Assembly (NCBI GenBank): GCA_963822445.1
Contig: CAWGHO010000003.1
Location: 192,001-256,000 of the forward strand
Reading direction: 5' to 3'
DNA length: 64,000 nucleotides
Source of the DNA: an uncultured Acidobacteriota bacterium
GTDB taxonomy: Bacteria; Acidobacteriota; Thermoanaerobaculia; Gp7-AA8
Positions 25,376-62,366 of this stretch are shown piece by piece (position 1 is the first letter of the stretch; the number at the start of each line of letters is the position of its first letter). The position numbers were made by a program, and so were the translations under genes. The notes under the pieces are model-generated. The model did no database searches and was not told the DNA's origin. It saw only the letters and a program-made list of their open reading frames with translations.

Positions 25376-28300
25376 TTACTCGGCCGGGTTTGCTGCGTCC
25401 GCCGTGTTGTCCTCCGGCTTGCGATCGAGCAGGGTGTGATCGGGATCGATGGCCGCGCTCGCGGGCTTGCGCGCCGACGTCACGATCACCGTGATCGTCT
25501 GCGTTCCCGACCGGATGCGATGCGGGTTACGGTAGATCGATTTTCCGCCGTCATCGAACACAGCGACTTCGATCGCGTCGTTCATCGGCACCGGCTTCTC
25601 TTTCCCCATCGCGTTGCCTTTGAGCTTCTGCGCCTCGACTTCCAGCTCAACTCGATAAGTCCCGTTGACCGCCGCCCGCACATCGACCTTCTTCGTCTTC
25701 AGATCCCAGAAGGTGATCTCCTCGAACAGTTCCTTGAGCAGGTAGTGCATGTCCGGCGGCGTAGCCGCACGAAGCTCGGCGTAGAGATCGAGCGAGGTCG
25801 CGAACGGCGGCCGTTGCGGATCGAACTTCGCCAGCAGATTGCGCAATGCGCCGTTGACGCGATCCACGCCGGCCAGCTCGCGCAGCGCGTACATCGCGAA
25901 CGGACCGGTGCGATAGGCATCGAGGCGGTCCCACGCGCGAAGCAGCGGAACCTCGCGGGTCTGGTGCGGAGCCATGTACTCGCGCCGCATGATCCGCAGA
26001 AGCCGATCGAGATGGTCGCGGCCGTAGGTCTGTTCGACGACGAGCATCGCGCTGTACCAGGCCAGGCTCTCGCTCAGAATCGGCGCGCCCTCGACCACGG
26101 CCGGCACGAGCTGGTGACCCCACCACTGATGCCCCATCTCGTGCGCCATGACCGCAAACGGGAAATCGATCTTCCGTTCATCATCCTCGACGCGAACCAG
26201 CGCGAACCCCTCCGAATACTCGATCATCCCCGGGAACGACGTCAGTCCCAGTCCGCGGCCGGTGCTCGGGTATTCGACGAGCCGCAACTGCTTATGCGGA
26301 TACGGGCTGTAGTGGCGCGTGTGATAGTCGAGCGAGGCCCTGGTGCTCTGCAGCATCCGCTCGAGGTTTCGGGTGTGCGGCGGATGATGGAGGATCTCGA
26401 TGTGGACGTCCTTCCACTTCGCCCGATGGACCGCGTACTTTGCCGAATAGATCGCATACGAGTTGGCGATCGGCAGGTCGGTCACATAGTGAAAGTAGCG
26501 GCGGCCGTTCTCGGTCCAGGTGCGTTGTAGTTGACCGGGAGCGACGCCGGTTTGATTCGCGTCCGTCCCGATGATCGTCTCCAGCTCGATCTTCTCGCGG
26601 CCCCGCTGCACGCTCCGCGCGGCCACGTCCTCGAGCGCGGGAATCGAGCGCTGCTTCGGGAGCCCGTGCCGCTTGCGCGGAGCGTCGTACTGCAGCTCGC
26701 GGCTCGGTTGATAGCCGACGAACGGAAGCCATTGCCGGTCGCCGTGATTGTGATCGGCGCGATGTTGAATCCAGGAGCCGTTGCCGGTCACGCTCGGAAT
26801 CCAGCCGTTGTTCCCGAATCCGCGCGGCGCGGAGACGATCTCGAAATTCATCCGCACCGACTCGCCGGGCTGCACCGGTTTGCCGAGCGCGTAGATGTGG
26901 TAGCCATGTTCTTCGTCGGTGAGGACATTGCGCGACGGGCGATCGAACGACACGTCGTTCGTCTCGACCTCCGGATACACGACGAGATGAATCGCGTCGA
27001 TGGCGGCGGTGCTCCGGTTCTCCAGTCGATAGCTGCCACGAATCGTGGCCGCCTTCTTCTCGGGATAGAAATCGACCTGCAGTTTCGTCGCGGCCAGCAG
27101 CGGTTGCGCGAGCGATCGATACTTGCCATACCGCCGCTCATACTCCGCGCGGTGCTCGTCGCGCTCGGCGTCGGTCCAGTAGGGGTTCAGGACGTTCGTG
27201 TTGTAGAAAACGAAGCCGCCCGCGCCGGCGATGATCGCCAGCGCGACCGCGGCAATCACCGAAGGCCACCGCGTCAGCCGCCGCCGCGCGAGCGAAGCAC
27301 GCCAGCGAAGGGCGCGCTCTTCCCCGCGCATCCAGAACAGATACGCCACGACGCCGCACAGCAACGCCCAGCCCAACCAGTACGACGTGAACCAGAGCCA
27401 CGGCCCGACCTGCGCGCCGAATCCGCTCATCTGCGAGTATGCCGGTTCGGGTGCGCTGCCGTAGAGCAGGAGGTTGTGCTCGATGCCGAGCTCGCGCGCC
27501 AGCTGCATGCCGATGTAGGCCAGCACGGCCACGACGTTGCCGACGTACTTCTGATTCACCAGAACGTGAATCAGCATCGCCAGCGCCGCGAACAGCAGGT
27601 AGCCGCTGAGCTGGAAGCCGAAGAGCATCTTCAGGTAGAGCCCGAGCTCGATGTCGTGGAAACCGAGCATCGCCTGCACCGTCACGCCGGACGCGAGAAA
27701 GATCACCTCGGTGATGACGAGCATCAGGCCGAGGGCCAGGAACTTGCCAAGGAAGGAGACCCATTCGGGGACTGGCGCCACGTCGGCGATGGCGTTCACG
27801 CGTGCGTCGCGCTCCCGCCAGACCAGCGTTCCCGCGGAGAACGCGACCAGGATCGCGACGAGTCGCGCGAGCTCGCCCGCGGCGAAGACGTCGGCCACCC
27901 GCGCGGTCGTCGCCGCCCCCGGCGTCCCCAACTCGACCTCGAGCACCTCCGCCGTCGTGGCGATGAAGAGGATCGCCGTGAACGGCACGATCAGCCACGC
28001 CCGGCCCTTGTGGAGGTTTTGCAGAGATGCGACGGCAACCGCGAACAGTTGCCGCATGCGCGTGCGGACGCCGAACGTGCGCCGGGCTGTGGGAACTGTG
28101 ATGCCGGTCCAGCGGACGGTGGGCACGTCGTCGATTGTCGCCTTGCGTCCCCAGCTCCATCCGCGGCTGCCCGCGGCAACCGCGGCGAATCGAAAGCGTG
28201 CATGCGCGATCGCGAGCACGACCAGCGCGACGCCGAGCCAGAGCAGGCGGTTCGAGAGGAGCGGGCCTTCGAACGCGATCGCCATCGTGTTTTTCTGCAG

Positions 28301-28978
28301 CGGGTTGTAAGTCCGCCAGAGCGAGACCAGTGCGGTGTAGCCGAGGGGATCGAGGAGCCTGGCCAGGGGCCAGTTGTGGAGGCGGCCGGCGATGAAACCC
28401 TGGGCGATGAACGCGGAGAAGAAGAGGACCACCGCGCCCGCGTAGGCCGCGCCGGCGCGACGGCTGAGCGTCGCCAGCGAGAAGAGCACCGCCGTGGCCA
28501 CGAACGCATTCGGCAAAGCCAGGAAGAAGTAAGCCGTCAAATACCCCTCGGCACGAAAGGGCCCGAGCAGCTCCGGCCCCATGCCCGGCATCCACGTCGC
28601 CATGAGCAACGCCAGCGGAACCGCGCCGAGAAGGAGCGCGTTGACGGCGAACGCGCCGAGAAAGCGGCCGCTGACGTACAAGCCTTTGCGCAGAGGCGTG
28701 GTGTAGAGGAGTGAGTCGAGACGCAATTCGCCATCGCGCGTCGCGGCGTCACTGGCGACTGCCGCCGTGACCAGCAGCGACAGCATGCTGGCGATGATGG
28801 TGATCAGGCCGATGACGACCGGTGCGTTGAAGAAGTAACCGTCATCGCGCGCGTCGAGGAAGATGATGAAGTCCAGCGCCAGCGCGAATCCAAAAAAGAT
28901 CGCGAAGTAGATCCGCGTCGAGATGCGGCTGACCTGATAACCGAGCTCGAAGCGGAAGACCTCCCAGGTCTTCGTCAT
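25376..28978 (-). CDS. ABC-2 type permease fused to M1-family zinc aminopeptidase
   Basis: Two permease-like multi-TM halves followed by a gluzincin motif AHEMGHQWW...LSESLAWYS. Confidence 0.9.
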   Translation of the reverse strand: MTKTWEVFRFELGYQVSRISTRIYFAIFFGFALALDFIIFLDARDDGYFFNAPVVIGLITIIASMLSLLVTAAVASDAATRDGELRLDSLLYTTPLRKGLYVSGRFLGAFAVNALLLGAVPLALLMATWMPGMGPELLGPFRAEGYLTAYFFLALPNAFVATAVLFSLATLSRRAGAAYAGAVVLFFSAFIAQGFIAGRLHNWPLARLLDPLGYTALVSLWRTYNPLQKNTMAIAFEGPLLSNRLLWLGVALVVLAIAHARFRFAAVAAGSRGWSWGRKATIDDVPTVRWTGITVPTARRTFGVRTRMRQLFAVAVASLQNLHKGRAWLIVPFTAILFIATTAEVLEVELGTPGAATTARVADVFAAGELARLVAILVAFSAGTLVWRERDARVNAIADVAPVPEWVSFLGKFLALGLMLVITEVIFLASGVTVQAMLGFHDIELGLYLKMLFGFQLSGYLLFAALAMLIHVLVNQKYVGNVVAVLAYIGMQLARELGIEHNLLLYGSAPEPAYSQMSGFGAQVGPWLWFTSYWLGWALLCGVVAYLFWMRGEERALRWRASLARRRLTRWPSVIAAVALAIIAGAGGFVFYNTNVLNPYWTDAERDEHRAEYERRYGKYRSLAQPLLAATKLQVDFYPEKKAATIRGSYRLENRSTAAIDAIHLVVYPEVETNDVSFDRPSRNVLTDEEHGYHIYALGKPVQPGESVRMNFEIVSAPRGFGNNGWIPSVTGNGSWIQHRADHNHGDRQWLPFVGYQPSRELQYDAPRKRHGLPKQRSIPALEDVAARSVQRGREKIELETIIGTDANQTGVAPGQLQRTWTENGRRYFHYVTDLPIANSYAIYSAKYAVHRAKWKDVHIEILHHPPHTRNLERMLQSTRASLDYHTRHYSPYPHKQLRLVEYPSTGRGLGLTSFPGMIEYSEGFALVRVEDDERKIDFPFAVMAHEMGHQWWGHQLVPAVVEGAPILSESLAWYSAMLVVEQTYGRDHLDRLLRIMRREYMAPHQTREVPLLRAWDRLDAYRTGPFAMYALRELAGVDRVNGALRNLLAKFDPQRPPFATSLDLYAELRAATPPDMHYLLKELFEEITFWDLKTKKVDVRAAVNGTYRVELEVEAQKLKGNAMGKEKPVPMNDAIEVAVFDDGGKSIYRNPHRIRSGTQTITVIVTSARKPASAAIDPDHTLLDRKPEDNTADAANPAE

Positions 28979-29886
28979 CGCGCGGCCTGAAGCGCCGGGA
29001 TCTGCAGACCGTAGTGGCCGTTCATCACGCTGAAGTAGACGTCCTGCAGATCAGGCTCCACGGCGTGGAATGCCGGCGACGGCGCGTGATCGCTCCACAT
29101 CCGCACGAGCGTGCGGCCGGAGAGGAGCTTGGTCGAGAGCATGGCGTGCTCCTGTTCGACGGCCGGCAGTTCTTCTTTGGTCACGACCCGTTCCCACACG
29201 CGTCCGCGCATTTCCTCGACCGCTGCGAGCGGCTCGGCCTCGAGGAGAATCCGCCCCTTGTCGATGATGGCCATGCGGGTGCAGAGCTCAGAGACGTCTT
29301 CGACGATGTGCGTGGAGAGGATGACCACGCTGTTCTCCCCGAGCTCGCTGAGCAGATTGAGAAAGCGGACGCGCTCCGCGGGATCGAGGCCGGCGGTCGG
29401 CTCGTCGACGATCAGCAGCTTCGGGTTGCCGAGGAGGGCGATGGCGATGCCGAAGCGCTGGCGCATGCCGCCGGAGTAGCCGCCGAGCTTCTGCTTGCGC
29501 ACGTCCCAGAGGTTGGTCTGCTTGAGCAACGCTTCGACGACGGCGCGGCGCTCGCCGCGATCGGCGATGCCTTCGAGAATGGCGAAGTGCTCGAGCAGTT
29601 TTTCGGCGGTGACGTGGCGATACACGCCGAAGTCCTGGGGCAGATAGCCGAGCGTCTCGCGTACGGCAGCTTTCTGGCGGACGACGTCGATGTCCCCGAG
29701 GTGGATCGTGCCTTCATCCGGTTCCTGAAGCGTGGCCAGGATGCGCATGAGCGTCGACTTGCCGGCGCCGTTCGGCCCGAGGAGTCCGAACATGCCCGCC
29801 GGGATGGTGAGGCTGACGTTCTGCAGTGCCTTGACGCCGTTCGGATAGGTTTTGGACAGGTTGTCGATGCGGAGATCGAGGGCCAT
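28975..29886 (-). CDS. ABC transporter ATP-binding protein
   Basis: GPNGAGKST, YSGGMRQR, LIVDEPTAGLD, LSTH. Confidence 0.95.
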   Translation of the reverse strand: MALDLRIDNLSKTYPNGVKALQNVSLTIPAGMFGLLGPNGAGKSTLMRILATLQEPDEGTIHLGDIDVVRQKAAVRETLGYLPQDFGVYRHVTAEKLLEHFAILEGIADRGERRAVVEALLKQTNLWDVRKQKLGGYSGGMRQRFGIAIALLGNPKLLIVDEPTAGLDPAERVRFLNLLSELGENSVVILSTHIVEDVSELCTRMAIIDKGRILLEAEPLAAVEEMRGRVWERVVTKEELPAVEQEHAMLSTKLLSGRTLVRMWSDHAPSPAFHAVEPDLQDVYFSVMNGHYGLQIPALQAAR

Positions 29887-29975
29887 TGCCGGGTTATTAC
29901 GTGCGGGGAAGGAAAAGGTGCACAGGGGCAAAAGCGCTGCCGCGTTGGCGCGGTGCGCTCACAGGCGATGGTGCT

Positions 29976-32900
29976 TCATGGTCGATGATTCGCGGCCCCC
30001 AGCACCGCGAAAGCTGCCCAGCGACGGATCTCCCGATTACCGCCGAGTGCTTCGAGTTGTGCGGCGCGAAGTGCTTCAGATGGCGCTACACCCCGCGACA
30101 GGTGTTTGTGAAGTGCGGTGACCAACGGGGCAGCTTCCCGGTCATCGATGTCCCAGAGTGTGCCGATGACCGCTGAGGCGCCGGCTACGAGGAATGCACG
30201 CGAGAGGCTCGATACACCCTCCACCGCGGCGTTGCGGCCGGTCATGGTGCTACATGCAGCCAGGACGACCCAGGGATGACGGCTCAACTTCAATTGTGCG
30301 ATCTGCCGTGAGGTCACGGTGTCGCCCGATGCGCAGATCAGGGCGGAGCGAGCCGGCTCGTGCTTATCGACGACTGCGTGGCCGGCGAAGTAAATGACCT
30401 GATGACTGGCTGCCATTGCGGTAAAGCGGGCCGCCGTCGCTTCTTTGCCAGCGAGAAGATCTGATCGTTGGTAATTGCGCGCCGCTTCGCGCGCTTCGGC
30501 CTCCGCAACATGTAGGGACGGGTAACGCTCGCCCGCGAGCGGATTCGCGTAGATGAGGGCCGACGCAGGTCGATAATTACCGCCGGCCGACAGGCGATCG
30601 ACAATTGCGGCGAAAATAGAGGCGCTCGGCGCCGTCGCGAGGGTGACCCGCTCGATCAGATACGCGCCTGACCTCGGATCGAGTAAAGCGGCAAACGGTA
30701 CGCGTTGCAGGACGTCGTCAGCAACGATCGTCACCGCGCGCACACCCGACAGTTCCGCTCGGATCGGTTCGATCACCAGTTCGTGCAGCTCCACAGACGC
30801 CGCGCGAGCGACGTGATCATCGCGACGTTCGGACAGAGCGTCGACGAACCTCAGTGCCGTTTGCGCAACGCGGTCGCGCGAAGCCAGCACGATGCGGTGA
30901 TTGAGGTGATCCTGCGTGATCACGAAGATGACTAACCGGTCCGTGAGAGCTACGTACTCGAGCAGTACCGCACCGGGCGCGAGACGACGCTGCACCTCAG
31001 CCAGCGGAGCGATTGGAGGCGCATCGGCATCTTCGATCTGCTCGAGCGCCGTCCGGGCGCGGCCCCGCTCGACGTACGCGAGCGCCGTCGCTGGATCGTT
31101 CCGGTGCAGGTGGAGCGCCACGGCCTCCTCGAACAGATCCGATGCGTCGTCGAAAATGCCTGGACGGATCTCGGCATCGCGGATGGTTGTCCGTTGCCGC
31201 TCGAGCTCACGGATGCCCTCGTCGAAGTCGTGGTGCGCCGCTTCCAACGCGCCCGAAGCGAGGTGAATGCGACCTCTGGCGAGGTGTAGCTCCGGAAGGA
31301 GGATTGGCCGCGACGCATGCTTCTGATACGCGATCGCCGAGGTGAGGAGAGTAGCCGAGCGCCGTGGGTTTATCCGCCGGAGGATCATGCCCTCCACGGC
31401 ATCGATGTCTGACAAGAGCGTGTAGCGCAAGTGGTTCGCAGCGATTCGCACGGCCGAAGCGCGCGCACGAAGAAGCGCCTCTGCTGCCAGCCTCCGGTTC
31501 CCGAGATGTGACTCCGCCGTCGCGTCACGCAGGAATAGGTCGGCGTCCAAGCCGTCGTCCTTCTGCACGTGAATGAGCGCCGCCTCGAGACGCTGAACGG
31601 CGCGTGCCCACGTCCAGCGGTGACCTCTTAACTCGGTGCGCGAAAGTGCAGCGAGGATCACTCGTACGCGATCGAGATCTCCCGCAGCGGACGCATTTCG
31701 AAGCGCGGAGAAGCAGTGGCGCCTCGCCGTCGCCGCCTGACCGACGAAGTCGTAATCCTCGCAGAGGATTGCTTCAGCCGCAGCGACGTTTCCGCGCTCG
31801 CCGAGGGAGCGGGAGATGACCACAGATTCAGCAGCCGCGTCGAGAGATGCGGACCAATGTCCCTGCACTGCCTCGGCCAGCGCAATCTCGAGTTGAATAC
31901 GTGCCATTAATGCCTTATGTGTCCCGCCGGCTCGCCGTTCGTCTGCGAGAAGCCGCCTCTGAATCTCGAGGGCCTCGTTGGGGCGACCCATCTTCAGCGT
32001 TGCCGCCGCGGCGAAATGGCGTGCCCACGCGGCCATCGGACTTCCGGCACCGGCAAACGAGCGTTCCGCCCTGCGAAGCAATCGTTCTGCTTCAACCGCA
32101 TCGTGGCGTGCATAGGCGAGCCGGCCCTCCTTGTAATCGAGATGACCGCGCACCAGAAGGTCGCGACTCGAGGAGCGATCGATGGCCTCGACGGCGTCGG
32201 CGACCATCGAGTCGCCGCGGTCACGCAGGACCCCGCCAATTACCCGAGCGCGGTCTATCAGCTGTTGCGCCGCTTCATGATCGCCGTTCGCGGTGCGGTC
32301 CGCCCAGAATGAGAGATACGGCCCTTCGGCGAAGGCGCGGGCCTGCTGCGGCAAGTCGCGCGTCAACGTGCGGAGCTGAGCAGGCGTGACCTCATCGATG
32401 TTGGCCGTCGAGTTTTGCCATGCCTGCCGGTCTGGGATGAATTGCGCCGAAAGATGCGTGCGTACGATGGAGCTCCAGGGGGAGATGGCGTCCGCGGCAA
32501 GTGCTCTCTTCCAGGGTCCTCGCGCGATCACGAAAACGCCGAACGCCTCCACGATCTTGGCTCGATTGAACGCCGCTTCCGCGTGCAGCGGCTGCAGCGC
32601 GAGTGCCCGGTCGGCGGCGTCGAGAGCAGCGAGCCGGTCGGATTCGACATCGCTCTGATCGGCGATCACCGCGTGCGCGGCGGCGAGGTCATTCCATGTC
32701 GAAGCATCTCGGGAGCTCTCGGGGATCGATTTCAATGCCGTTACTGCGTTCGCCGGTTCGCCAGCGAGAAGGTGCGCCGTCGCTGCTGCTTGTAAGGCTT
32801 CCTTGCCAGCCGCGTCACGCGACAGCCGAAGCAATTCGCTTGCGACACCAAGTCGATTATGGGACCGCGCCGACCGTGAGACAGCCGCTGCCGCGGCACC

Positions 32901-33083
32901 CGCCGGCCGCGTCAAGCGCAGGCCAAGAACCTTCGGATCATCCGCTGCATGACGCGCACGGGCCAACGCGATGGCGAAGTGGGCGCGATCCAGCGTGGCG
33001 CCCATCTTCGGCCAGGCGAAAGATCCAACAGCTACCGCGACCGCGACACCGATCGCGGCGAGATGCCCTGGTCGTAATCGCAT
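29976..33083 (-). CDS. TPR-CHAT domain protein (caspase-clan protease) with N-terminal membrane anchor
   Basis: TPR-like helices. CHAT motifs LQRVPFAAL, YFAGHA (His), VVLAACST (Cys), SLSRAFLVAGASAVIGTLW.IDD, ALRAAQL, WAAF. Confidence 0.9.
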   Translation of the reverse strand: MRLRPGHLAAIGVAVAVAVGSFAWPKMGATLDRAHFAIALARARHAADDPKVLGLRLTRPAGAAAAAVSRSARSHNRLGVASELLRLSRDAAGKEALQAAATAHLLAGEPANAVTALKSIPESSRDASTWNDLAAAHAVIADQSDVESDRLAALDAADRALALQPLHAEAAFNRAKIVEAFGVFVIARGPWKRALAADAISPWSSIVRTHLSAQFIPDRQAWQNSTANIDEVTPAQLRTLTRDLPQQARAFAEGPYLSFWADRTANGDHEAAQQLIDRARVIGGVLRDRGDSMVADAVEAIDRSSSRDLLVRGHLDYKEGRLAYARHDAVEAERLLRRAERSFAGAGSPMAAWARHFAAAATLKMGRPNEALEIQRRLLADERRAGGTHKALMARIQLEIALAEAVQGHWSASLDAAAESVVISRSLGERGNVAAAEAILCEDYDFVGQAATARRHCFSALRNASAAGDLDRVRVILAALSRTELRGHRWTWARAVQRLEAALIHVQKDDGLDADLFLRDATAESHLGNRRLAAEALLRARASAVRIAANHLRYTLLSDIDAVEGMILRRINPRRSATLLTSAIAYQKHASRPILLPELHLARGRIHLASGALEAAHHDFDEGIRELERQRTTIRDAEIRPGIFDDASDLFEEAVALHLHRNDPATALAYVERGRARTALEQIEDADAPPIAPLAEVQRRLAPGAVLLEYVALTDRLVIFVITQDHLNHRIVLASRDRVAQTALRFVDALSERRDDHVARAASVELHELVIEPIRAELSGVRAVTIVADDVLQRVPFAALLDPRSGAYLIERVTLATAPSASIFAAIVDRLSAGGNYRPASALIYANPLAGERYPSLHVAEAEAREAARNYQRSDLLAGKEATAARFTAMAASHQVIYFAGHAVVDKHEPARSALICASGDTVTSRQIAQLKLSRHPWVVLAACSTMTGRNAAVEGVSSLSRAFLVAGASAVIGTLWDIDDREAAPLVTALHKHLSRGVAPSEALRAAQLEALGGNREIRRWAAFAVLGAANHRP

Positions 33084-33120
33084 CCCTGGTCTCGTTTGCG
33101 GAATGCCGGAAGATTAGCGC

Positions 33121-33151
33121 AAAACGAAGGAGGGCCGGCAAGCGGCCCTCC
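33121..33151 (-). terminator. Intrinsic terminator between the metacaspase and CHAT genes
   Basis: Perfect 9-bp stem GGAGGGCCG/CGGCCCTCC with 5-nt loop, followed on the minus strand by TTCGTTTT. Confidence 0.7.
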
Positions 33152-33160
33152 ATGAGCATG

Positions 33161-34810
33161 CTAGGGCCATCCGGCGGGTGAACAGAAGTTCACCGGAACG
33201 GAGACGATCCATGGCAAGGGCGGGTCGCTTGGAACCGTCGATGGTCTTGCGAGCAAGTAGAACAGCGGGAAATGTTCGCGCGGGTTTTCGGAGGAAAGCG
33301 GATCCTGGAGTATGTCCTGTTCCCGCGCGTTTCCGATGAGCACCGAAGCGTATGGCTTGAGATAAATCATGGTCTCTTCCGATCCTTTGGTGATCCGGAT
33401 CGTCGCGGCAGCCGTCGTGAGTGGTAGACGCAGCTCTGCGTACTCTGCGGTGCGGCGATGCCATGTGCCCGGAACGCCGGCTTTGTTGGTAAACATGACG
33501 ATCTTCTGATCGATCGTTCCGGCGTCGAGGATGCCCGCATACAGATCGACGTGTGCCGCGACGATGGCCTCCGGCGGAGGGTCGAGATAACAAGTCGCGT
33601 CGGGTAACGGGTCGAGCGACGGCAGAATGTCCTTTTGCATGCCGGGAACGTAACGCTCGTAGGCCGCCGTCGTCGCTAGGCCGCCGGTCACGTCGACATT
33701 CAGGAACTCGATCCGATGACCCTGAAGATGCCAGCGCAGAAAATCGATTCCGCCACCAACGTGCGGTTTCGCGATCGGGTCGACGCCCGTCCATTGTTCA
33801 ACCTGATCCTCGCCGAACTCGATGAACGCGATGTGTTTTTTGTCGACGTCGGAACGCGAGTCGTATGGCAGGAGAACCCGCTTCGCGAAGGTACTGCCGG
33901 AGTTCGGGTCCGCGAAGCAGGTGATGCCCGTGAACCTCACTGCAATCGATGCTGCAGCGAGCCGCGCCGTTGCCGTCTTGGCGATCTCTGTTGCAACGTC
34001 AGATTCAGAGAGGGTAGGAGCGTCAGTTGGCTCGCCGGGAAAGAACTCGTCCGCGCCCGAGAGATCTCCGCGAAGTTCCGGCGTCTGCGGAATTCCCTTC
34101 AGCAAGGGCTGGATGCCGGCCAGCAGATCCCTGAACGTACCATCGTAGATCCGCAGCCAGTCCAGGGCTCGCGAGCTGAAGAGGGCGCGCGGCTCTCCGT
34201 CGATCTCGAGCTGAACGGCCTGCTCCTTGCGCCCGCAGGCGGCGACGATCAGCGGACCACCAATCGCGGCTTCTCCTCTGCCGAGCGATCCGAACGCGCG
34301 AACGTTCGTCAGATCGAGTGCGCCATCGATGGTCGATTGGATGAAAAGCCGTTTCGCACCCGGTGGAAGGTCGATATCGAAACCGCCCGAGAAGCACGTT
34401 TCGAGAATCAACGTCGTATCGGCATCCTCCGGAAGATGTGCGTCGCGAAACATCGCAGCGAGGTCGCTGTCCGTGATCACGGAGTCCCGTGGCGTGCTGC
34501 CGGGATGCGGAAATGCGCAGAATGCTTCCTCGAGGGTGTAGCCGGTGGACGTTTTGACCGCCGTCACCGTGCCGTGGCCCGAGAGGACAAGCATGAGTTG
34601 ATAGTTGTCTTCTGCTCCCTTCAACAAGCGTTCGACCTCTCTGCGGATGTCTTTCACCGTAGCGTCCTTGTCGGTGAGGAGCTCGGTTGCATAGCCGTAC
34701 TTTTCCCTCAGGAGTTTCTCCCAGCGCCGCGCTTCCGGAACCGCTGCTTCGAGGTCCGCGGCGTATCCGCGGTAGTTCCCCACGCCTACGATCAAGGCTT
34801 TTTTCTCCAT
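33161..34810 (-). CDS. Metacaspase (peptidase C14) fused to an uncharacterised C-terminal domain
   Basis: KKALIVGVGNY, LLTDKDAT, LSGHG (His), LETCFSGG (Cys), AACGRKEQA, QTPEL. RBS AAGGAG before ATG 34810. Confidence 0.85.
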   Translation of the reverse strand: MEKKALIVGVGNYRGYAADLEAAVPEARRWEKLLREKYGYATELLTDKDATVKDIRREVERLLKGAEDNYQLMLVLSGHGTVTAVKTSTGYTLEEAFCAFPHPGSTPRDSVITDSDLAAMFRDAHLPEDADTTLILETCFSGGFDIDLPPGAKRLFIQSTIDGALDLTNVRAFGSLGRGEAAIGGPLIVAACGRKEQAVQLEIDGEPRALFSSRALDWLRIYDGTFRDLLAGIQPLLKGIPQTPELRGDLSGADEFFPGEPTDAPTLSESDVATEIAKTATARLAAASIAVRFTGITCFADPNSGSTFAKRVLLPYDSRSDVDKKHIAFIEFGEDQVEQWTGVDPIAKPHVGGGIDFLRWHLQGHRIEFLNVDVTGGLATTAAYERYVPGMQKDILPSLDPLPDATCYLDPPPEAIVAAHVDLYAGILDAGTIDQKIVMFTNKAGVPGTWHRRTAEYAELRLPLTTAAATIRITKGSEETMIYLKPYASVLIGNAREQDILQDPLSSENPREHFPLFYLLARPSTVPSDPPLPWIVSVPVNFCSPAGWP

Positions 34811-34886
34811 CTCGTTCTCCTTCTGCTGGTCTGCGAATGTCTCGATCCCCAGCTGAATGTCGAAGACGGACGGGCAGGAAAATTTC

Positions 34887-35708
34887 TCAGCGAATGTGTT
34901 CGAGAATTTCGATCCGCTGCCTGATTTCGCTGGTCCATGCGGATCGGGGAGCGGAAGCAAGCGCGCGACGGTAGGCCTCGCCCGCCGAATGGCGTTGCCG
35001 AAGATGCTCGAGAGCAACGCCGCGGTTGAAGGCAGCAGATGAAAGATCGGGGGCGAGGGCAAGCGCGCGGTCCGCGGCGGCGACGGCCTGTTGATAGGCA
35101 TACGGATCGCCAGACGCAGCGCCGGCAGCCACGTACGCCACAGCCAGGTCGTTCCAGTAAGCGGCACGTTCGGGGGAGGAGCGCGCGGCGTGGACGAAGT
35201 TGGCGATCGCTTTCGGGGTGTCGCCGAGGAGTAGAAAGGCCACTCCGCGGGCGTGCACGGTAGCTGGATGGTCACCGCGCAACCGACTGGTCTCCTCGGC
35301 CGCTGCGCGGAGCTCGAGCTCCGGCCCCGAAGCCTTTTGCGAGCGGATTGAATTGAACGGCTTCCACGCGAAGCCGTGGAGATTTCCTTCCACGTGCCGA
35401 TTATCGGCCACCACGGCCGCGTCTCGGACTTGCGCCAGAGGATCCGAGGTCCCTGCACGCCAGAGAACGAGCGAGATTGCGATGGCTGTCAGCGCGGCGG
35501 CGACGGCTGATCGGCGCCACCCCCACGCCGGCCTCTGCTTTTCGCTCTCGCCGAGGAACCTGATCGTCTCGCCGATTACGATTGCGCATTCCGAGCAATT
35601 GGCCGCATGCCGTACGACGTCGGAATGGTGTTCCGCATCGAGGAAACCCTCCGCGAACTCGGCCAGGAGTGCCGGATCGGGGCAGCCGCGCACCGGTCTT
35701 TCGGTCAC
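34887..35708 (-). CDS. zf-HC2 anti-sigma factor with TM helix and TPR domain
   Basis: CPD..LAEFAEG.L..HAANCSEC (HxxxCxxC), a TM helix, TPR-like WNDLAVAY..AAFNRG. Overlaps the sigma gene stop. Confidence 0.85.
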   Translation of the reverse strand: MTERPVRGCPDPALLAEFAEGFLDAEHHSDVVRHAANCSECAIVIGETIRFLGESEKQRPAWGWRRSAVAAALTAIAISLVLWRAGTSDPLAQVRDAAVVADNRHVEGNLHGFAWKPFNSIRSQKASGPELELRAAAEETSRLRGDHPATVHARGVAFLLLGDTPKAIANFVHAARSSPERAAYWNDLAVAYVAAGAASGDPYAYQQAVAAADRALALAPDLSSAAFNRGVALEHLRQRHSAGEAYRRALASAPRSAWTSEIRQRIEILEHIR

Positions 35709-36583
35709 TCTCGTTCCTCTCTCTCTGCCTGGTTCTTGTCCGTGGACAGAAATCCGAAGTCCAGATCACGGTGCCGGCTCGCCAGGACGCTGGCCGCGTC
35801 CGCCGCCGTGATGCCCGCTGCTTCGAGACGAGCGCGAAGCAGGACCAGCATCCGCTGCAGCTGCCGGTAGAGAGGCTTCTGTTCGATTCGCAGCGTTCGC
35901 GAGATGTCCGCCACGCTCATTCCTCCTTCGAAGCGTAGACGGAAGATGAGTCGATCCATGTCACGGAGGTCGCGCATCGTCGCACGAACGATGTCCTCGA
36001 TCCGGCTGGACACGTCACGCCAATATGAAGCGAATACCACTTCGTCGACACGATCATCGGCGGCGATTGCGTCGCGGGCATAGTCGATGTCGACCGGTCT
36101 GGGACGCGCCGTCCGGGTGGGAAGCTTCGTGGAGATTGTTTCTACACGCTGCCGTGTGAGATCAGGCCAGCGGCGGGTGAGAGACGGAAGAATTTCGTCG
36201 ATCGTTCGCCCATCACGGAACAGCAGAGCCTCGATGGTGATCGCCGGTTCTCCAAGGCGCCGAGCCGTTGCCGACGCATGCCACTTTCCCCACTGAGAGA
36301 TCCGATAATCGAGCAGCAACCGCTGCACGACGATGGAGATGAACGCCGCGAACGTCGATCGCCGCTGATATTTGCGGATGATGGCATAGCTGTCGTCGAT
36401 GAGTCTCAGTTTCACGTACGACGCGAAATCGTCAGCGTCGTGGGGTTGCATTCGGCCGCGACGGCACGCAAAGCGGATGGCGCGATCGATCGTCGAGAGC
36501 TCCCGGACAAACAGTGATTCCGGCTGTGTGCCGTCGGCGTCCGAGCACGCGTTGCCACCGTCGTTGTCCCGTTGCGACCCCAC
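35705..36583 (-). CDS. ECF-type sigma-70 factor with insertion between regions 2 and 4
   Basis: Region 2-like DADDFASYVKLRL..STFAAFISIVV.RLLLDY and region 4 DRLIFRLRFEGGMSVADISRTL..LYRQL. Confidence 0.85.
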   Translation of the reverse strand: MGSQRDNDGGNACSDADGTQPESLFVRELSTIDRAIRFACRRGRMQPHDADDFASYVKLRLIDDSYAIIRKYQRRSTFAAFISIVVQRLLLDYRISQWGKWHASATARRLGEPAITIEALLFRDGRTIDEILPSLTRRWPDLTRQRVETISTKLPTRTARPRPVDIDYARDAIAADDRVDEVVFASYWRDVSSRIEDIVRATMRDLRDMDRLIFRLRFEGGMSVADISRTLRIEQKPLYRQLQRMLVLLRARLEAAGITAADAASVLASRHRDLDFGFLSTDKNQAEREERE

Positions 36584-36709
36584 TCATCAAAGGAGTGCCG
36601 TTGCGCCAGCGATCCACACCCCAACGTGGCTGGATGCCAGCACGATATCCACAGCAACGTCCGGCAGTGCTTTCCGCTTTGCTGCATAATCGCCGAGGAG
36701 GAAATCCAT

Positions 36710-36964
36710 ATGGCGTTGAAAGTGAACGCGGCCCAGCTCAGTCTCGAAGGTCTCCTGAAACTTCTCGGTGGATCCGCCAGCGATCGTCTGCGGTTCTGGG
36801 AAATCCTCAAGGGGATCACCACGCCCGCCGAAGCGCAGCTGATCAATCAGAACCTCAACACCATCAACGTCCTCGCGAAACAGACCGCGGCGAACCTCAA
36901 AGGTCTTCAGACCACCGCCGGCCAGATCAACAAGAGAATTGCCAAAGGGAAGAACGTCCGCTGA
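36710..36964 (+). CDS. 84-aa small protein, candidate YcaO substrate/precursor peptide
   Basis: Strong RBS GAGGAGG before ATG 36710. Ends 7 nt before the inferred YcaO start. Sequence MALKVNAAQLSLEGLLKLLGG...KGKNVR. Confidence 0.75.
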   Translation: MALKVNAAQLSLEGLLKLLGGSASDRLRFWEILKGITTPAEAQLINQNLNTINVLAKQTAANLKGLQTTAGQINKRIAKGKNVR

Positions 36965-36971
36965 CAGAGCG

Positions 36972-38678
36972 GTGGAAATCGATCTGAAGAAGGCGTTCGG
37001 CGCATCCCGCCGGACGCCTTCTGATTTTGCGGCCGCATTTTTCGAGGCCGGCGACGACCGCCGGCGCTGTGCGTTCGAGTCGCAAACGCATCGAGACGGC
37101 GTCTCCTCGCTGATCGCTTCAGCGGATGCCGATCGGGCGCTGATCGGGCCGCTCTCGCTCCCCGGAAGAGCGGGCTGCGCGCACTGCGCCCACGAGCGGA
37201 TCCGGGCGGCGGCGGCAGTCCATGACCCGCGCCGCCCGGCCACGCAACGCGCTCGTGCGGTGGCGCGGCGCGTGATGGAGCGCGAGGCTCAGGCGATCGC
37301 GGATGGCGGCACGGCGCTGCTCGATCACGTGCTCGCGGTCGATGTGCGCACGGGCGCGGAGTCGCTGCATCGCGTCATTCCGCTTTCGCGATGCCCGGTG
37401 TGCGGCGGCGCCGCGGATGCTCCCCTGATTGCTTCAGCGGCCGAGTCGCTCGACGGCTGGGTCGATCCGGTGACGGGCGTCATCAGCGCGATTCACCTCG
37501 ATCCCGAGACCGAACTGCCGTTCATCGTCACCGCGGCGCCTCCGCATGTCGTGCGGAACGATGGGACGCTGCAGCAATTGCCGATCGGATGGGGCAAGGG
37601 CCTCACCCTTCCCGACGCGGTGCTGTCGGCGGTGGGGGAGACGATCGAGCGGTACTCGGCGTCGTTCCCCGATGAATCACGCATTGTCTGGCGCCGGCCG
37701 CGCGATCTCGAAGGCGACGTTCTCGATCCGCGCGACTTTCCGCTTTACGCCGAACGGCATTACCGGCGGAAGAGCTTCCCGTATGCGCGGTTCAACGCGG
37801 CGATCCGGCATCCCTGGGTGCAGGGCACGTGGCTCGCCGGCGGCGGCGAGGTCTGGGTGCCGGCGGTGTTCGCGTTCCTCTCGCTGAAACTGCACGCGGA
37901 ACAGTTGTTCGTGCGGGAGACCTCGAACGGCCTCGCATCGTGGACGGAGCGCGACCCGGCCGCGTTGCGCGCGGTTCTCGAGCTGGTCGAGCGCGACGCG
38001 TTTCTCTCCGCGTGGATGACGGCAACGCCGGGACGCGCGGTCACGCTCGATGACGCGCTCGACCCTCGTCTCCGGCGCGTTTTCGATGCTGTCGAAACCC
38101 TTGGCGCAGCGATCGAGATCTTCACACTTCCCACGAGTGCGTGCGGGACGACGGTGCTGTGCGTCGCTCGCGGAGATGGTGAGCGCTATCCCGGCGCGAC
38201 CATCGCGCTCGCCGCCGATCTCGATCCGGCCGCGGCGCTGCAGGGCGCGATCCTCGAGCTCGGCCAGACCGCGCCTCACCTCCGGCGGATGATGCAAACG
38301 GGGGCAATCGCCATCCCCGCACGCGACACCGGCGTGCACGGGATGCTCGATCACGCCGCGTACTACTTTTCCGCCGATCGCGCGGCGGCGTTCGATTTCC
38401 TGCGCGGCGGCGGATCGATTTCCGTCCGCGCGCTGACAAGCCGCACCCGCCGGCGAACGCTCGCCGCCTGCACCGCCGCGCTCCGAAAAGCGAATGTGCG
38501 TGTCGCGCTCGTCGATGTCACCGCACCCGACGTCGCCACCGGACCGTTCCGGGTGATTCGCGCCGTGAGCCCTGACCTTCAGCCACTCTCGTACGGCTAC
38601 GGATTCGAGCGCCTTCCGGTCGAACGTGTTCGCCGGCGCGGCGTCGCGACAGGCGTACCCGTGCATCCAGTCTGGTAG
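36972..38678 (+). CDS. YcaO-family cyclodehydratase with truncated E1-like/TOMM N-terminal domain
   Basis: IGPL..PGRAGCAHC and HRVIPLSRCPVCG. YcaO ATP motifs GWGKG..SAVGETIERY and TSNGLAS..ELVERDAF. Pro-rich C-terminus PVHPVW. GTG start inferred. Confidence 0.88.
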   Translation: MEIDLKKAFGASRRTPSDFAAAFFEAGDDRRRCAFESQTHRDGVSSLIASADADRALIGPLSLPGRAGCAHCAHERIRAAAAVHDPRRPATQRARAVARRVMEREAQAIADGGTALLDHVLAVDVRTGAESLHRVIPLSRCPVCGGAADAPLIASAAESLDGWVDPVTGVISAIHLDPETELPFIVTAAPPHVVRNDGTLQQLPIGWGKGLTLPDAVLSAVGETIERYSASFPDESRIVWRRPRDLEGDVLDPRDFPLYAERHYRRKSFPYARFNAAIRHPWVQGTWLAGGGEVWVPAVFAFLSLKLHAEQLFVRETSNGLASWTERDPAALRAVLELVERDAFLSAWMTATPGRAVTLDDALDPRLRRVFDAVETLGAAIEIFTLPTSACGTTVLCVARGDGERYPGATIALAADLDPAAALQGAILELGQTAPHLRRMMQTGAIAIPARDTGVHGMLDHAAYYFSADRAAAFDFLRGGGSISVRALTSRTRRRTLAACTAALRKANVRVALVDVTAPDVATGPFRVIRAVSPDLQPLSYGYGFERLPVERVRRRGVATGVPVHPVW

Positions 38679-38703
38679 TGTCAGGCGCGCACGGGAGGGA
38701 ACC

Positions 38704-39342
38704 ATGATCATCGGCATCCCGATCTTTCAGAAAGTCGACCTGCTCGACGTCGCCGCGGCGGTCGAGGTGTTCACTTCCATGAAATCGTACGCGCCGCAGC
38801 TCGGCGCGGAGATCTGGCTGATCGCCGAAGATGACTGCGACGTGGTCACGCGCGTGGGAGTGACCCTCAAGCCGCAGAAGTGCTTCGAGGAAGTGCCCGT
38901 GGTCGATGTGCTGTGGGTTCCGGGCGGCGATCCGTCGGCGCTGAATGCACTGATGCACGATCCGAAGCGGACGTACCTCGACTTCCTGATCACCCGCAGC
39001 GCCGGTGCACGATACGTGACCTCGGTTTGTGAAGGCGCGTTGCTGCTGGCGCAGGCCGGACTGCTCGACGGCTACCTCGCCACGACGCACTGGGCATTCG
39101 TTCCCTGCCTGAAACGCTTCAAGTCAGTCAAAGTGGCGGAAGGCTATCCGCGCTTCGTCGTCGACCGGAATCGCGTGACCGGCGGCGGGATTTCATCGGG
39201 CCTCGACGAATCGCTGAAGATCGTCGAGCTGCTCGCCGGCTACGAAGTCGCGCAGCAGGTGCAGCAGTTCACGCAGTACTACCCGGCCCCGCCCGTGGCC
39301 AGCATCATCCCCGACGCCACCGGCTGCCCGCTCGATGGGTAG
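38704..39342 (+). CDS. DJ-1/PfpI family protein (isonitrile hydratase-like)
   Basis: LLDV..EVF, DVLWVPGG, TSVCEGALLL (nucleophile Cys), ATTHW, GGGISSGLD, QYYPAPP. Confidence 0.88.
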   Translation: MIIGIPIFQKVDLLDVAAAVEVFTSMKSYAPQLGAEIWLIAEDDCDVVTRVGVTLKPQKCFEEVPVVDVLWVPGGDPSALNALMHDPKRTYLDFLITRSAGARYVTSVCEGALLLAQAGLLDGYLATTHWAFVPCLKRFKSVKVAEGYPRFVVDRNRVTGGGISSGLDESLKIVELLAGYEVAQQVQQFTQYYPAPPVASIIPDATGCPLDG

Positions 39343-39385
39343 GGAAAACTCTTCCAGCTGACTCTCCTGAAATATCAACTCCCAT

Positions 39386-39799
39386 AAAAAAATCGATCAC
39401 GCTGTTCTCCGGCGGACGCCGTCGACGCGAGCAGAGACGCTTCTTCTCGTCTGGGCGGCGGTAGCCGCGCTGCTCCCCAAGTGTCCTCTCTGTTTCCTGG
39501 CGCTCCTCGGCGCGACGGGAGCGCTGGGGACGGCTGGCTCGGCCTGGGCTGCGTGGATGCCGGCCGTCATGGTCGGCTCGCTTCTGATCTCGGTCACCGC
39601 GGTCTCCATTCGAGCGCACATGGAGCGCCGGTACGGGCCCGCGATCGTCGCCCTGATCGCCGCGGTCACGATCGTCTTGGGCAGATTCGTCTTTCACTCG
39701 ACCGCCGTCGTTTACGTCGGCGCGGCGACGCTTTTCGGCGCCGCGATCTTTCATTTCGCAATGGAGAGGATCCGATGGCACAAACCGCTGGTGTCGTGA
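39386..39799 (+). CDS. MerC-like CxxC membrane protein; start codon missing or non-canonical
   Basis: The frame of ORF 39557..39799 is open from 39371 and encodes LLLVWAAVAALLPKCPLCFLALLG plus further TM helices. No ATG/GTG/TTG occurs before the motif. Confidence 0.6.
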   Translation, partial: KKIDHAVLRRTPSTRAETLLLVWAAVAALLPKCPLCFLALLGATGALGTAGSAWAAWMPAVMVGSLLISVTAVSIRAHMERRYGPAIVALIAAVTIVLGRFVFHSTAVVYVGAATLFGAAIFHFAMERIRWHKPLVS

Positions 39800-41853: not shown

Positions 41854-41863
41854 AAAGGCAGCG

Positions 41864-44458: not shown

Positions 44459-44471
44459 AGAAGGAGACGCA

Positions 44472-44900
44472 ATGAAGCACGACAATCCGTTCGTCGGGAC
44501 GTGGAGCTACCGCAGTCTGAACAATGACCCTGATCTCTCCATCGCGTTCAACGACCTGCAATTCGGGATCGGCACGATCAAGATCACGGCCGACTCCTTC
44601 GACAGGCTCGGAGGAACGATCGGCGGGCAGGGGTGGTCGCTCAACCTGCGCGGCTCGTTCGGCTACGGTTCGCCGATGCAGATCCGCTTTCAAGGCAAAG
44701 GCGTGGTCGGTCCGGCGGAATGGATCTACGACTACATCGGCTGGCTGGTGCCGGTCTGGCCGAACAGCAACGACCAGCTGGAGCGGTCTTCGATCGTCGG
44801 CTCCATCGTGCGAACCGTCCCGCATCAGAGCGAAACGGGCACCGGTCCGATTCACCCGGCCGGCGTGGTCGCGTCCTGGTACGCCGTGCGCGCAAAGTGA
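44472..44900 (+). CDS. Small beta-barrel-like hypothetical protein
   Basis: RBS AAGGAG. GTWSYRS..WIYDYIGW..IVGSIVRTVPH..AGVVASW. Lies between the lodA-like and lodB-like genes. Confidence 0.75.
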   Translation: MKHDNPFVGTWSYRSLNNDPDLSIAFNDLQFGIGTIKITADSFDRLGGTIGGQGWSLNLRGSFGYGSPMQIRFQGKGVVGPAEWIYDYIGWLVPVWPNSNDQLERSSIVGSIVRTVPHQSETGTGPIHPAGVVASWYAVRAK

Positions 44901-45997: not shown

Positions 45998-46012
45998 AGA
46001 GGAGAGAACGTC

Positions 46013-46393: not shown

Positions 46394-46404
46394 GGAGCCA
46401 TGAC

Positions 46405-51792: not shown

Positions 51793-51849
51793 TGTTCAGT
51801 CATCGCAGCGGCCGACAGAGACCATCGCCGGCCAGGAAATCCGTGGCGT

Positions 51850-52260
<411 letters not shown>

Positions 52261-62280: not shown

Positions 62281-62366
62281 AGATGAGATGAGAAGGCCAA
62301 CCTCCCACGCAGTCGCAGGAATCTGCGCTGCAAGGAATGCGTCGAGCGCAAGAAAGGAGATTGGCC

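Follow-up and report, generated by a model that had tools for sequence, protein, structure and literature searches.

Four genes that lie head to tail on the reverse strand of a 64,000-nucleotide stretch of Acidobacteriota DNA (contig CAWGHO010000003.1 of assembly GCA_963822445.1; the whole stretch is called the window here) encode, between positions 29976 and 36583, a sigma factor, an anti-sigma factor, a metacaspase and a transmembrane TPR-CHAT protein. Profile comparisons show the family of the anti-sigma and CHAT proteins to be homologous to DdvA of Myxococcus xanthus. On balance it is probable, with moderate confidence, that the cassette belongs, as a split form, to the DdvS/DdvA class of extracytoplasmic function (ECF) sigma/transmembrane TPR-CHAT anti-sigma modules and that it works by the mechanism proposed below. 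The four genes are as follows.

35705-36583, reverse strand: sigma gene, encoding a divergent ECF-like sigma factor of 292 amino acids (aa)
34887-35708, reverse strand: anti-sigma gene (273 aa), whose GTG start overlaps the sigma stop codon by 4 nucleotides (nt)
33161-34810, reverse strand: metacaspase gene (549 aa), encoding a C14 caspase domain followed by a C-terminal domain (Cdom)
29976-33083, reverse strand: TM-TPR-CHAT gene (1035 aa; TM, transmembrane), without a zinc anti-sigma domain

These limits, and the common orientation of the genes, had been given in a preliminary description of this DNA made from the letters alone, and were confirmed. The anti-sigma and metacaspase genes are 76 nt apart and the metacaspase and CHAT genes 77 nt apart. 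The metacaspase starts at ATG 34810, which has an AAGGAG Shine-Dalgarno sequence upstream and gives a protein of 549 aa; the longest open reading frame (ORF), of 765 aa, is not credible. All four ORFs are intact, as are both His-Cys dyads, and the four motifs on which the preliminary description had based those dyads were located: SGHG at residue 77 (His79) and ETCFSG at 137 (Cys139) in the metacaspase, AGHA at 900 (His902) and AACS at 942 (Cys944) in the CHAT protein. Hydropathy also agrees with the membrane topology described earlier, with one TM-grade segment each in the anti-sigma (residues 67-87) and at the CHAT N-terminus (5-26) and none in the sigma factor or the metacaspase. Third-position GC is 0.69-0.71 in the four cassette genes and 0.73-0.85 in the six flanking genes tested, reaching 0.85 in the adjacent ATP-binding cassette (ABC) genes; recent acquisition or low expression could be the cause of the lower value.

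The likeness to DdvA involves the following features of the anti-sigma and CHAT proteins.

29976-33083, reverse strand: TM-TPR-CHAT protein, with TM segment (residues 5-26), stem (97-211) and CHAT domain (763-1029)
30378-30380, reverse strand: CHAT His902, in the AGHA motif
30252-30254, reverse strand: CHAT Cys944, in the AACS motif
35343-35399, reverse strand: juxtamembrane linker motif of the anti-sigma, R104-x2-E107-x2-L110-x2-F113...R122, a candidate site-1 cleavage or recognition segment
34911-35258, reverse strand: TPR stem at anti-sigma residues 151-266, a paralogue of CHAT protein residues 97-211 and predicted to be periplasmic

Pfam found a CHAT domain (E 5e-50) and a weak C50 match in the 1035-aa protein, and no SAVED or other nucleotide-sensing domain. 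Searched alone against the PDB, the window CHAT sequence had no match and a family profile was needed: profile A5, built from 32 family sequences, retrieved DdvA (8rot_B/8rw5, E 2.1e-43), with positions 11-605 aligned to chain residues 6-585. By homology to the topology of DdvA seen by cryo-electron microscopy, the CHAT domain would be periplasmic. Across the 24 rows of a family alignment His902 never varies and Cys944 hardly does (at least 90% conserved), one row (locus L003) being disrupted around the Cys.

The anti-sigma had been described as a zf-HC2 protein; Pfam zf-HC2 itself did not reach E 0.01. Residues 34-41 (HAANCSEC) supply H34, C38 and C41, which together with Cys9 (residue 10 is Pro) would form a CHCC-type zinc site, and the N-terminal profile A8 matches DdvA (8rot_B, E 3.3e-7), the nuclear magnetic resonance structure of the DdvA N-terminus (8rlz), ChrR and RsiW. 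Residues 150-266 gave TPR matches in Pfam. In alignment A5 the short anti-sigmas (~270 aa, full length) correspond to the first ~320 columns of the usual, fused proteins, which join a zinc anti-sigma domain (ZAS), a TM helix, TPRs and CHAT in one chain (ZAS-TM-TPR-CHAT). Thus the short proteins contain the zinc domain, TM helix, juxtamembrane motif and first TPR stem, and they end at a conserved DP.S.W..EAR.RL..L. The split CHAT proteins have no zinc domain, begin with a TM helix of their own, and carry a second copy of the stem and a degenerate juxtamembrane motif. The two stems in the window are 38% identical over 119 residues (BLASTP, E 2e-5) and lie in register in alignment A5. A complex prediction of anti-sigma residues 85-273 with CHAT residues 26-460, each with its own alignment and run without controls, gave a score of 0.00 and a mark of 0.32 and is evidence neither way.

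In the fused family the juxtamembrane motif has the consensus R.VE.RL.G.F.WAP..G..R. The match to this consensus is 0.86 in fused proteins, 0.52 in short anti-sigmas, 0.50 in the CHAT proteins of loci L012 and L079 and 0.21 in the CHAT proteins of the metacaspase-containing clade. The anti-sigma motif aligns with DdvA residues 104-127, inside the DdvA linker (Q95-S143), and cleavage may well take place within it. Retention of the linker on the sigma-holding chain and its loss from the protease chain would be a division of labour that can be read from the sequence. According to the available text of the DdvA paper, separase cuts after the Arg of an acidic-x-E-x-x-R motif (PMC11506125); the window linker motif ends in the conserved R122.

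The available text of the same paper (PMC11506125) describes DdvA as a single protein with a zinc anti-sigma domain in the cytoplasm and a CHAT domain in the periplasm, between which lie a TM helix, a flexible linker and a TPR scaffold, and identifies 8ROT as DdvA-DdvS. In the DdvA dimer each CHAT dyad faces the linker (Q95-S143) of the other protomer, and the authors' proposal is that a signal induces cleavage in trans, after which RseP acts. Regulated proteolysis is in part shown for DdvA: the protein cut short at residue 128 or 140, without TPR-CHAT, is degraded in an RseP-dependent manner. On this pattern, the short anti-sigma of the window would hold the sigma factor through its cytoplasmic zinc domain, and the anti-sigma and CHAT proteins would pair in the periplasm stem to stem, like the protomers of the DdvA dimer. 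A periplasmic signal would activate the His902/Cys944 dyad, which would cut the anti-sigma linker (R104-R122) in trans as site-1 protease. An RseP-type site-2 protease and cytoplasmic proteolysis would then free the sigma factor to transcribe its own operon (sigma, anti-sigma and caspase-Cdom) from a GGGTGTGG-N16-CACTCC promoter. The caspase-Cdom protein may act in the cytoplasm in disposal of the zinc-domain fragment, in modulation of the sigma factor or as an output.

The CHAT protein might instead be only a sensor or steric shield, with site-1 cleavage carried out by another periplasmic protease. The dyad of DdvA has a resting geometry and its dyad mutants have no phenotype in unperturbed cells, as far as the available text of PMC11506125 goes, and short anti-sigmas occur without an adjacent CHAT gene, all of which would suit a non-catalytic role. 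This explanation is nevertheless considered improbable: the conservation of His902 and Cys944 over 24 rows, only one of them a disrupted copy, argues for catalysis, and retention of the linker motif by the ZAS chain, with its loss from the CHAT chain, fits a substrate and its enzyme.

If the preferred reading of a split DdvA-type module is right, the cassette is a natural test of the trans self-cleavage proposed for DdvA, since the substrate and protease chains are on separate genes, and the conserved linker motif is a concrete candidate for the cleavage site.

A neighbourhood survey of sigma homologues, as envisaged in the preliminary description, places the window cassette in a larger family. 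A profile scan with the sigma alignment, taking one genome per species, gave 200 relatives, of which the best 80 loci were kept; all counts of loci below refer to that sample. The 80 loci come from 57 genomes, 71 being from Acidobacteriota (51 of them Thermoanaerobaculia) and eight from Gemmatimonadota; the remaining locus is on a 1.3-kb contig with an odd label. This contig (L050, 1296 bp) is in a bin labelled Patescibacteria, bears an Acidobacteriota-type member of the sigma family and is probably a binning error. When the window proteins were compared with the ORFs of the 80 loci, the anti-sigma matched in 65, the CHAT protein in 63 and the metacaspase in five. Architecture was classed by the gene after the sigma gene. 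A fused ZAS-TM-TPR-CHAT protein of ~1035-1110 aa, the DdvA form, follows in 41 loci, and nine are split. Two have a CHAT gene without a recognizable ZAS motif, and eight have a short ZAS protein with no CHAT gene downstream (including L001 and L004, whose contigs end too soon). Eight are cut by a contig end, 11 are none of these and one is too short to assess. The usual form is a three-gene unit comprising sigma, the fused ZAS-TM-TPR-CHAT protein and a small, cytoplasmic, beta-rich Cdom protein. The DdvA class is thereby extended from Myxococcota to many Acidobacteriota and some Gemmatimonadota genomes.

The gene order of the window recurs in L002, L003, L005 and L007, all complete and from different genomes, and in L004 up to its contig end; because of this recurrence, the arrangement is not a chance one. 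In a tree of the sigma factors (81 rows) the window groups with L001-L005 and L007, with a Shimodaira-Hasegawa-like approximate likelihood ratio test (SH-aLRT) support of 92 and an inner node of 97. This group is nested in one of 61 rows (SH-aLRT 98) composed mostly of fused loci. L012 and L079, which are true splits without a caspase, lie elsewhere. By this tree the split is a derived state, and fission is indicated more than once because L012 and L079 fall outside the window group. In place of the fused protein, the window clade has two membrane proteins with a common TPR stem and, between them, Cdom, fused or adjacent to C14. Four genomes with a split cassette also carry fused or incomplete paralogues, and several paralogues per genome are common.

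Alternatively, the split might have no function of its own and be either what is left of a fused gene in decay or an artefact of assembly. The cassette of L003 (11656-16169) does look damaged, its metacaspase lacking the N-terminal His region and the end of its CHAT domain being frameshifted around the catalytic Cys. In addition, three 'split' loci (L008, L017 and L038) are from one metagenome-assembled genome, and their adjoining or overlapping ORF halves resemble frameshifted fused genes and not fission. Yet hardly any credence can be given to decay or artefact as an explanation of the window, where all four ORFs and both dyads are intact and the two chains, each with a TM helix of its own, are encoded on either side of a whole gene. 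Moreover, the same order is found in the window, L002, L003, L005 and L007, from different genomes and in one clade, and in L004 as far as its contig reaches.

Five Gemmatimonadota loci (L053, L055, L058, L078 and L080) have a different layout, in which the sigma gene is followed by a gene for a ~300-aa protein without a Pfam match, and the CHAT gene is without a zinc motif or on the other strand. Cdom still lies 3' of CHAT in L055 and L058, and L053 has an extra S8 subtilase and a Ser/Thr kinase.

The gene between the two membrane proteins of the window encodes two domains.

34001-34810, reverse strand: caspase (C14) domain, the N-terminal ~270 residues of the metacaspase, with His79 (34574-34576) and Cys139 (34394-34396)
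33164-33958, reverse strand: Cdom, the C-terminal 265 residues (285-549), an all-beta, predicted cytoplasmic and previously unnamed domain

The caspase domain matches PF00656 (E 1e-11, 45.4 bits; cutoff 21.4). Its AlphaFold2 model has a mean predicted local distance difference test (pLDDT) of 79.7, and the best Foldseek matches of this model (E 2e-13 to 1e-10) are Arabidopsis metacaspases 4 (E 2.4e-13) and 9, GSU0716 and MALT1. The GHG and xxC motifs are retained in ten of the 11 family rows that cover the domain, L003 lacking the His region. Membership of family C14, with a predicted caspase fold and a His-Cys dyad, is thus indicated by both sequence and model. The metacaspase and its relatives begin directly at the first caspase strand, with neither signal peptide nor TM helix.

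Cdom belongs to no Pfam or NCBIfam family. An AlphaFold2 model from 58 sequences is all-beta (pLDDT 93.2, predicted template-modelling score 0.90), and Foldseek found nothing like it at E ≤ 0.001 in the PDB or BFVD. Attempts to identify it through a PDB sequence profile and the ESM Atlas gave a chance-level match and scores of 0.79-0.82, also chance level. A five-sequence Cdom profile run against 1.84 billion proteins found 232 representatives at E ≤ 1e-3 and 85 at E ≤ 1e-30. Among the 148 representatives fetched, 46 have at least 480 aa and 83 have 230-360 aa; the longer proteins, among the 150 matches listed, bear Cdom at the C-terminus. Peptidase_C14 was detected in nine of 18 long Cdom proteins scanned, and no Pfam family in any of 23 short ones. 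His326 is invariant and Cys543 is 96% conserved over 95 sequences, Cys543 lying in a low-confidence C-terminal tail. Stand-alone forms start at the first conserved strand and therefore have no room for a signal peptide.

Cdom adjoins the CHAT gene in 40 of the 49 loci that have a CHAT gene with at least 900 nt after it and so could be assessed, a figure that rises to 48 after one profile iteration, with L053 alone lacking Cdom. In 36 of the 40 it is 3' of the CHAT gene (within 220 nt in 35), and in the other four it is 5', as the caspase-linked form. The window has a single Cdom, the one within the metacaspase. Two neighbouring ORFs encode the caspase domain and Cdom in L005 and L007. In L064 and L065 a weak C14-like region, which contains SGH and AAC motifs, lies behind Cdom; the window-clade caspase profile does not match this region, which is therefore probably an independent fusion. 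Other hydrolase genes are found near by. Peptidase genes 3' of Cdom encode a C39-like protein and an S8 subtilase in L062 and an S8 subtilase in L079, and genes 3' of the CHAT gene encode S8 in L053, M36 in L003 and lipase_3 in L005, an ORF intervening in L053 and L003. The linkage of Cdom to peptidases in these several arrangements suggests a functional tie of the signalling module to cytoplasmic proteolysis.

A hidden Markov model of the clade found no relative of the window caspase domain in the 41 fused loci, so the core module should work without this caspase. On these comparisons the caspase domain is an add-on restricted to the window clade, and Cdom is the conserved third component of the module, one which has so far been left out of any model of these systems. 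The preliminary description had treated the metacaspase as an independent second protease; this is not supported, as its C-terminal half is a conserved part of the module and its caspase half an addition of one clade. Conservation of the metacaspase gene in related cassettes was borne out within the seven-row clade, where it is present in all five assessable loci, but does not extend to the wider family.

The preliminary description had also envisaged a cascade between the two caspase-clan proteases. In such a scheme CHAT would cleave and activate the metacaspase, which would cut the anti-sigma, the sigma factor or other proteins. There is a precedent in Haliangium ochraceum: the available part of a preprint (bioRxiv 10.1101/2023.06.23.546230) describes a type III-B system in which SAVED-CHAT activates PCaspase, whose targets are PCc-sigma as well as PCi, the caspase cleaving a putative sigma factor. 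In the window both dyads are intact, and the two genes are adjacent in five cassettes (window, L002, L003, L005 and L007). A direct cascade is nonetheless highly improbable because the proteins would be in different compartments, CHAT being periplasmic by homology to DdvA and the metacaspase having no signal peptide or TM segment. In addition, neither SAVED nor any other nucleotide-sensing domain is present in the CHAT protein, and the 41 fused loci contain no relative of the window caspase, the C14-like region of L064 and L065 being weak and unrelated. A relay across the membrane is another reading: CHAT as initiator would cut the anti-sigma in trans, and the released sigma factor would, by driving its own operon, raise the level of the Cdom-tethered caspase, which would act as a third protease on the zinc-domain/sigma complex or as an executioner. 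This two-caspase relay looks rather unlikely; if true, it would be a bacterial counterpart of the extrinsic initiator-to-executioner pathway, operating without CRISPR (clustered regularly interspaced short palindromic repeats) or cyclic nucleotides.

Two putative transcription signals bear on how the cassette is expressed.

36592-36621, reverse strand: GGGTGTGG-N16-CACTCC, a putative autoregulated promoter of ECF type that stops 8 nt short of the sigma start codon
33129-33151, reverse strand: terminator-like, GC-rich hairpin with a 9-bp stem (8 GC) followed by a U-rich tail (UUCGUUUUGC), located after the metacaspase stop codon and ahead of the CHAT start codon

A two-box motif (GGGTGTRG, 16-17 nt, C[AT]CTCC) precedes the sigma gene in the window and in 13 other loci; it stops 8-25 nt short of the start codon and has a fixed spacing of 25-26 nt from GGT to CTCC. 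In its strict form it has a single match in the window, at 36592-36619 on the reverse strand, where 0.07 would be expected, and in its relaxed form 14 of 24 matches in 1.19 Mb (the 80 loci) are just upstream of a sigma gene. The motif is presumably a promoter. One further relaxed match precedes a different ECF sigma/zf-HC2 pair in L019, and many other loci of the family have, by eye, a TATCCT-like box instead.

The hairpin was found by a consensus scan and RNA folding, with a z-score for the whole region of just -1.0. Strong hairpins occupy the equivalent position in L002 and L003, and there is none in L005. A likeness of the window to L002 in the metacaspase-CHAT intergenic region is a lead, noticed by eye alone. 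Because a hairpin follows the metacaspase stop codon in the window, L002 and L003, there is a hint of a single unit made up of sigma, anti-sigma and caspase-Cdom, with separate expression of the CHAT gene.

The position of the caspase-Cdom gene in this putative autoregulated unit, behind sigma and anti-sigma and ahead of the terminator-like hairpin, would suit an output driven by the sigma factor, in which broad proteolysis leads to dormancy, death or remodelling and Cdom has a regulatory or targeting role. Different hydrolases follow Cdom in other loci (L062 and L079) or CHAT (L053, L003 and L005), and activated PCaspase of H. ochraceum has an abortive phenotype according to the available part of the preprint (bioRxiv 10.1101/2023.06.23.546230). 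A protease output cannot be general, however, as the commonest form of Cdom is free of peptidase (83 of 148 representatives are 230-360 aa), and the window has no defence genes. A proteolytic output is thus an unlikely reading, although one to be taken seriously.

The sigma factor itself is divergent. It matches TIGR02937 over residues 34-251 (E 1.1e-9, 38.2 bits; cutoff 42.9) and, weakly, Sigma70_r4_2 (16.9 bits; cutoff 25.7). Its earlier designation as an ECF sigma factor is uncertain, both scores being under the curated cutoffs. At E ≤ 1e-5 it has 355 relatives, nearly all of ~280-300 aa. In the 21-row alignment A1 the sigma-2-like and sigma-4 regions are separated by a long conserved segment, WGKWHAS...RDG...RWP.LTR...LP.R..RPR by eye, and the C-terminus has a nearly invariant DLDFGF motif followed by an acidic tail. 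The middle segment and the DLDFGF motif seem unusual among ECF sigma factors. Matches of profile A1 in the PDB are limited to the sigma-4 regions of SigF, SigK, SigW and SigL.

Several observations weigh against a split module with the mechanism proposed. The sigma gene is immediately upstream of the anti-sigma gene, but its product scores under the curated ECF cutoffs and profile A1 does not retrieve DdvS. Six loci (L020, L045, L067, L071, L072 and L074) have a short ZAS anti-sigma and no downstream CHAT gene (the contig of L020 extends just ~1.5 kb after the sigma gene), so that a short ZAS anti-sigma need not have a protease next to it. Since the terminator-like hairpin lies between the first three genes and the CHAT gene, it is not assured that all four are co-regulated. 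None of the possible roles of caspase-Cdom is favoured by the results. Every step beyond homology to DdvA is inferred, and CHAT-mediated cleavage is, from what is said of DdvA, unproven even there: in the available text of PMC11506125, the H862A and C907A mutants behave like wild type in unperturbed cells and phage Mx4 elicited no autoproteolysis.

Of the known systems, DdvS/DdvA (8ROT, 8RW5 and 8RLZ; PMC11506125, PMC6061681) is the closest in plan. Shared features are a sigma factor followed by a CHCC zinc anti-sigma with a single TM helix, a conserved juxtamembrane linker, a periplasmic TPR scaffold, CHAT with a His-Cys dyad, and several paralogous modules per genome. The window differs in having the zinc domain and TPR-CHAT on two genes with duplicated stems and a metacaspase gene between them, where DdvA is one polypeptide. 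Its sigma factor, of ~290 aa, has a long conserved middle and a profile that misses DdvS, and the promoter motif is GGGTGTGG-N16-CACTCC instead of the GTAA-n16-CGT of DdvS. Peptidase family C25 belongs to clan CD. A gene of unknown function and a clan-CD-type (C25-type) peptidase gene are also part of the DdvS/DdvA unit, according to the available text of PMC11506125. The same text describes DdvA as the sole characterized TPR-CHAT anti-sigma. Table S7 of that paper, in its available form, has 144 Myxococcota rows plus Comamonas and no Acidobacteriota or Gemmatimonadota; the host phylum of the window, which is Acidobacteriota-like, is thus not in it.

No CRISPR-like array, no cas genes or domains, no genes or domains of a cyclic-oligonucleotide-based antiphage signalling system (CBASS) and no cyclase were found in the 64-kb window, and PADLOC, run on 37 window proteins, found no defence system, only generic caspase, CHAT and ABC-ATPase matches. 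Unlike that of DdvS/DdvA, the neighbourhood is therefore without CBASS or CRISPR. Such flanks are not general even in Myxococcota, most of the rows shown in Table S7 being annotated without flanking CBASS or CRISPR-Cas (PMC11506125, available part). The view of the preliminary description that this is a CRISPR-independent transmembrane sigma/anti-sigma module with a CHAT protease has held up, through the profile match to DdvA and the lack of an array, whereas the defence role it had entertained finds no support in the window or in those Table S7 rows.

The H. ochraceum system resembles the cassette in encoding a CHAT protease, a C14-type caspase and a sigma factor together and in linking proteolysis to transcription control. 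As described in the available part of the preprint, it is wholly cytoplasmic, triggered by cA3 via SAVED and attached to cmr genes, the caspases being compared by description only. In the window, CHAT follows a TM helix and TPRs, and there is no SAVED domain, cyclase or cas gene. Type III-E craspase (Cas7-11, Csx29, Csx30, Csx31 and RpoE; PMC10028731) likewise has a TPR-CHAT protease with putative anti-sigma targets (PMC11506125, available text). However, the window CHAT protein scores only 24.2 bits on the Csx29 model NF041237 (cutoff 300), the window has no Cas7-11 gene or CRISPR array, and craspase is, from the available accounts, cytoplasmic and RNA-activated, unlike the cassette. Lastly, genes for CHAT proteins, subtilases and carboxypeptidases occur near ECF54 sigma factors, which have no anti-sigma in the available text of PMC8999054. 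The likeness is in the association of an ECF-type sigma factor with CHAT proteins and in the S8 subtilase genes found after family loci L053, L062 and L079, and the difference, on a comparison by description only, is that the window has an anti-sigma.

A protease-linked, membrane-spanning sigma switch is therefore of a known kind, in print since 2018 and 2024. What looks new is the division of the anti-sigma into substrate-like and protease chains, the spread in Acidobacteriota and Gemmatimonadota, and Cdom as a near-universal third gene tied to peptidases. A full-text literature search found no paper on the split, the spread or Cdom; subscription journals and supplements may hold more.

On its sigma side the cassette adjoins, divergently, a cluster resembling an oxidative one for a ribosomally synthesized and post-translationally modified peptide (RiPP), at 36710-48915 on the forward strand. 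The features concerned here are as follows.

36710-36964, forward strand: 84-aa peptide ORF with a strong Shine-Dalgarno sequence, the first ORF of the RiPP-like oxidative cluster
39337-39367, forward strand: one-mismatch copy of the sigma-type promoter, GGGTAGGG...GACTCTCC, between the DJ-1 stop codon and the tyrosinase-region genes
39557-39799, forward strand: small ORF of the RiPP-like cluster, encoding by eye a membrane segment with a CPLC motif

The 126-bp head-to-head gap noted earlier between the sigma gene and this cluster is correct; it separates the sigma gene from the peptide ORF (ATG 36710, GGAGGA Shine-Dalgarno), which is followed by YcaO, DJ-1/PfpI, the small ORF, a tyrosinase-domain protein, a LodA-like oxidase and a multicopper oxidase. 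The earlier suggestion that the sigma factor could control the YcaO cluster is not borne out: homologues of YcaO, DJ-1, tyrosinase and LodA occur in none of the 80 related loci, and the strict promoter motif is found in the window only upstream of the sigma gene. The relaxed motif adds two window sites, the one at 39337-39367 on the forward strand and one antisense inside the anti-sigma gene. As second sigma-type promoters both were set aside, being compatible with chance (shuffled sequences average 0.6 per window), and the site at 39337-39367 is no more than a lead. The -35 variant of the site at 39337-39367 is also present in the own site of L005 and ahead of another ECF sigma gene in L019.

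Rfam matched no family in the 64-kb window. On the other side, 3' of the CHAT gene and on the same strand (25376-29931, reverse), are genes for an ABC ATPase and for an ABC-2 permease of 1200 aa, one region of which is M1-peptidase-like. A close homologue of the ATPase (E 6e-88) lies directly 3' of Cdom in the fused locus L063 (14819-15490), and a homologue of the permease (E 4e-212) is on the opposite strand in L060 (18622-20784). Further away, in the regions 51325-52227 and 62337-63473, are short ORFs that encode no more of a histidine kinase than its ATPase part (155 aa) and no more of a sigma-54 activator than its lid and helix-turn-helix (125 aa). An IS110-family transposase lies further on, and the histidine kinase and sigma-54-activator genes may be truncated.

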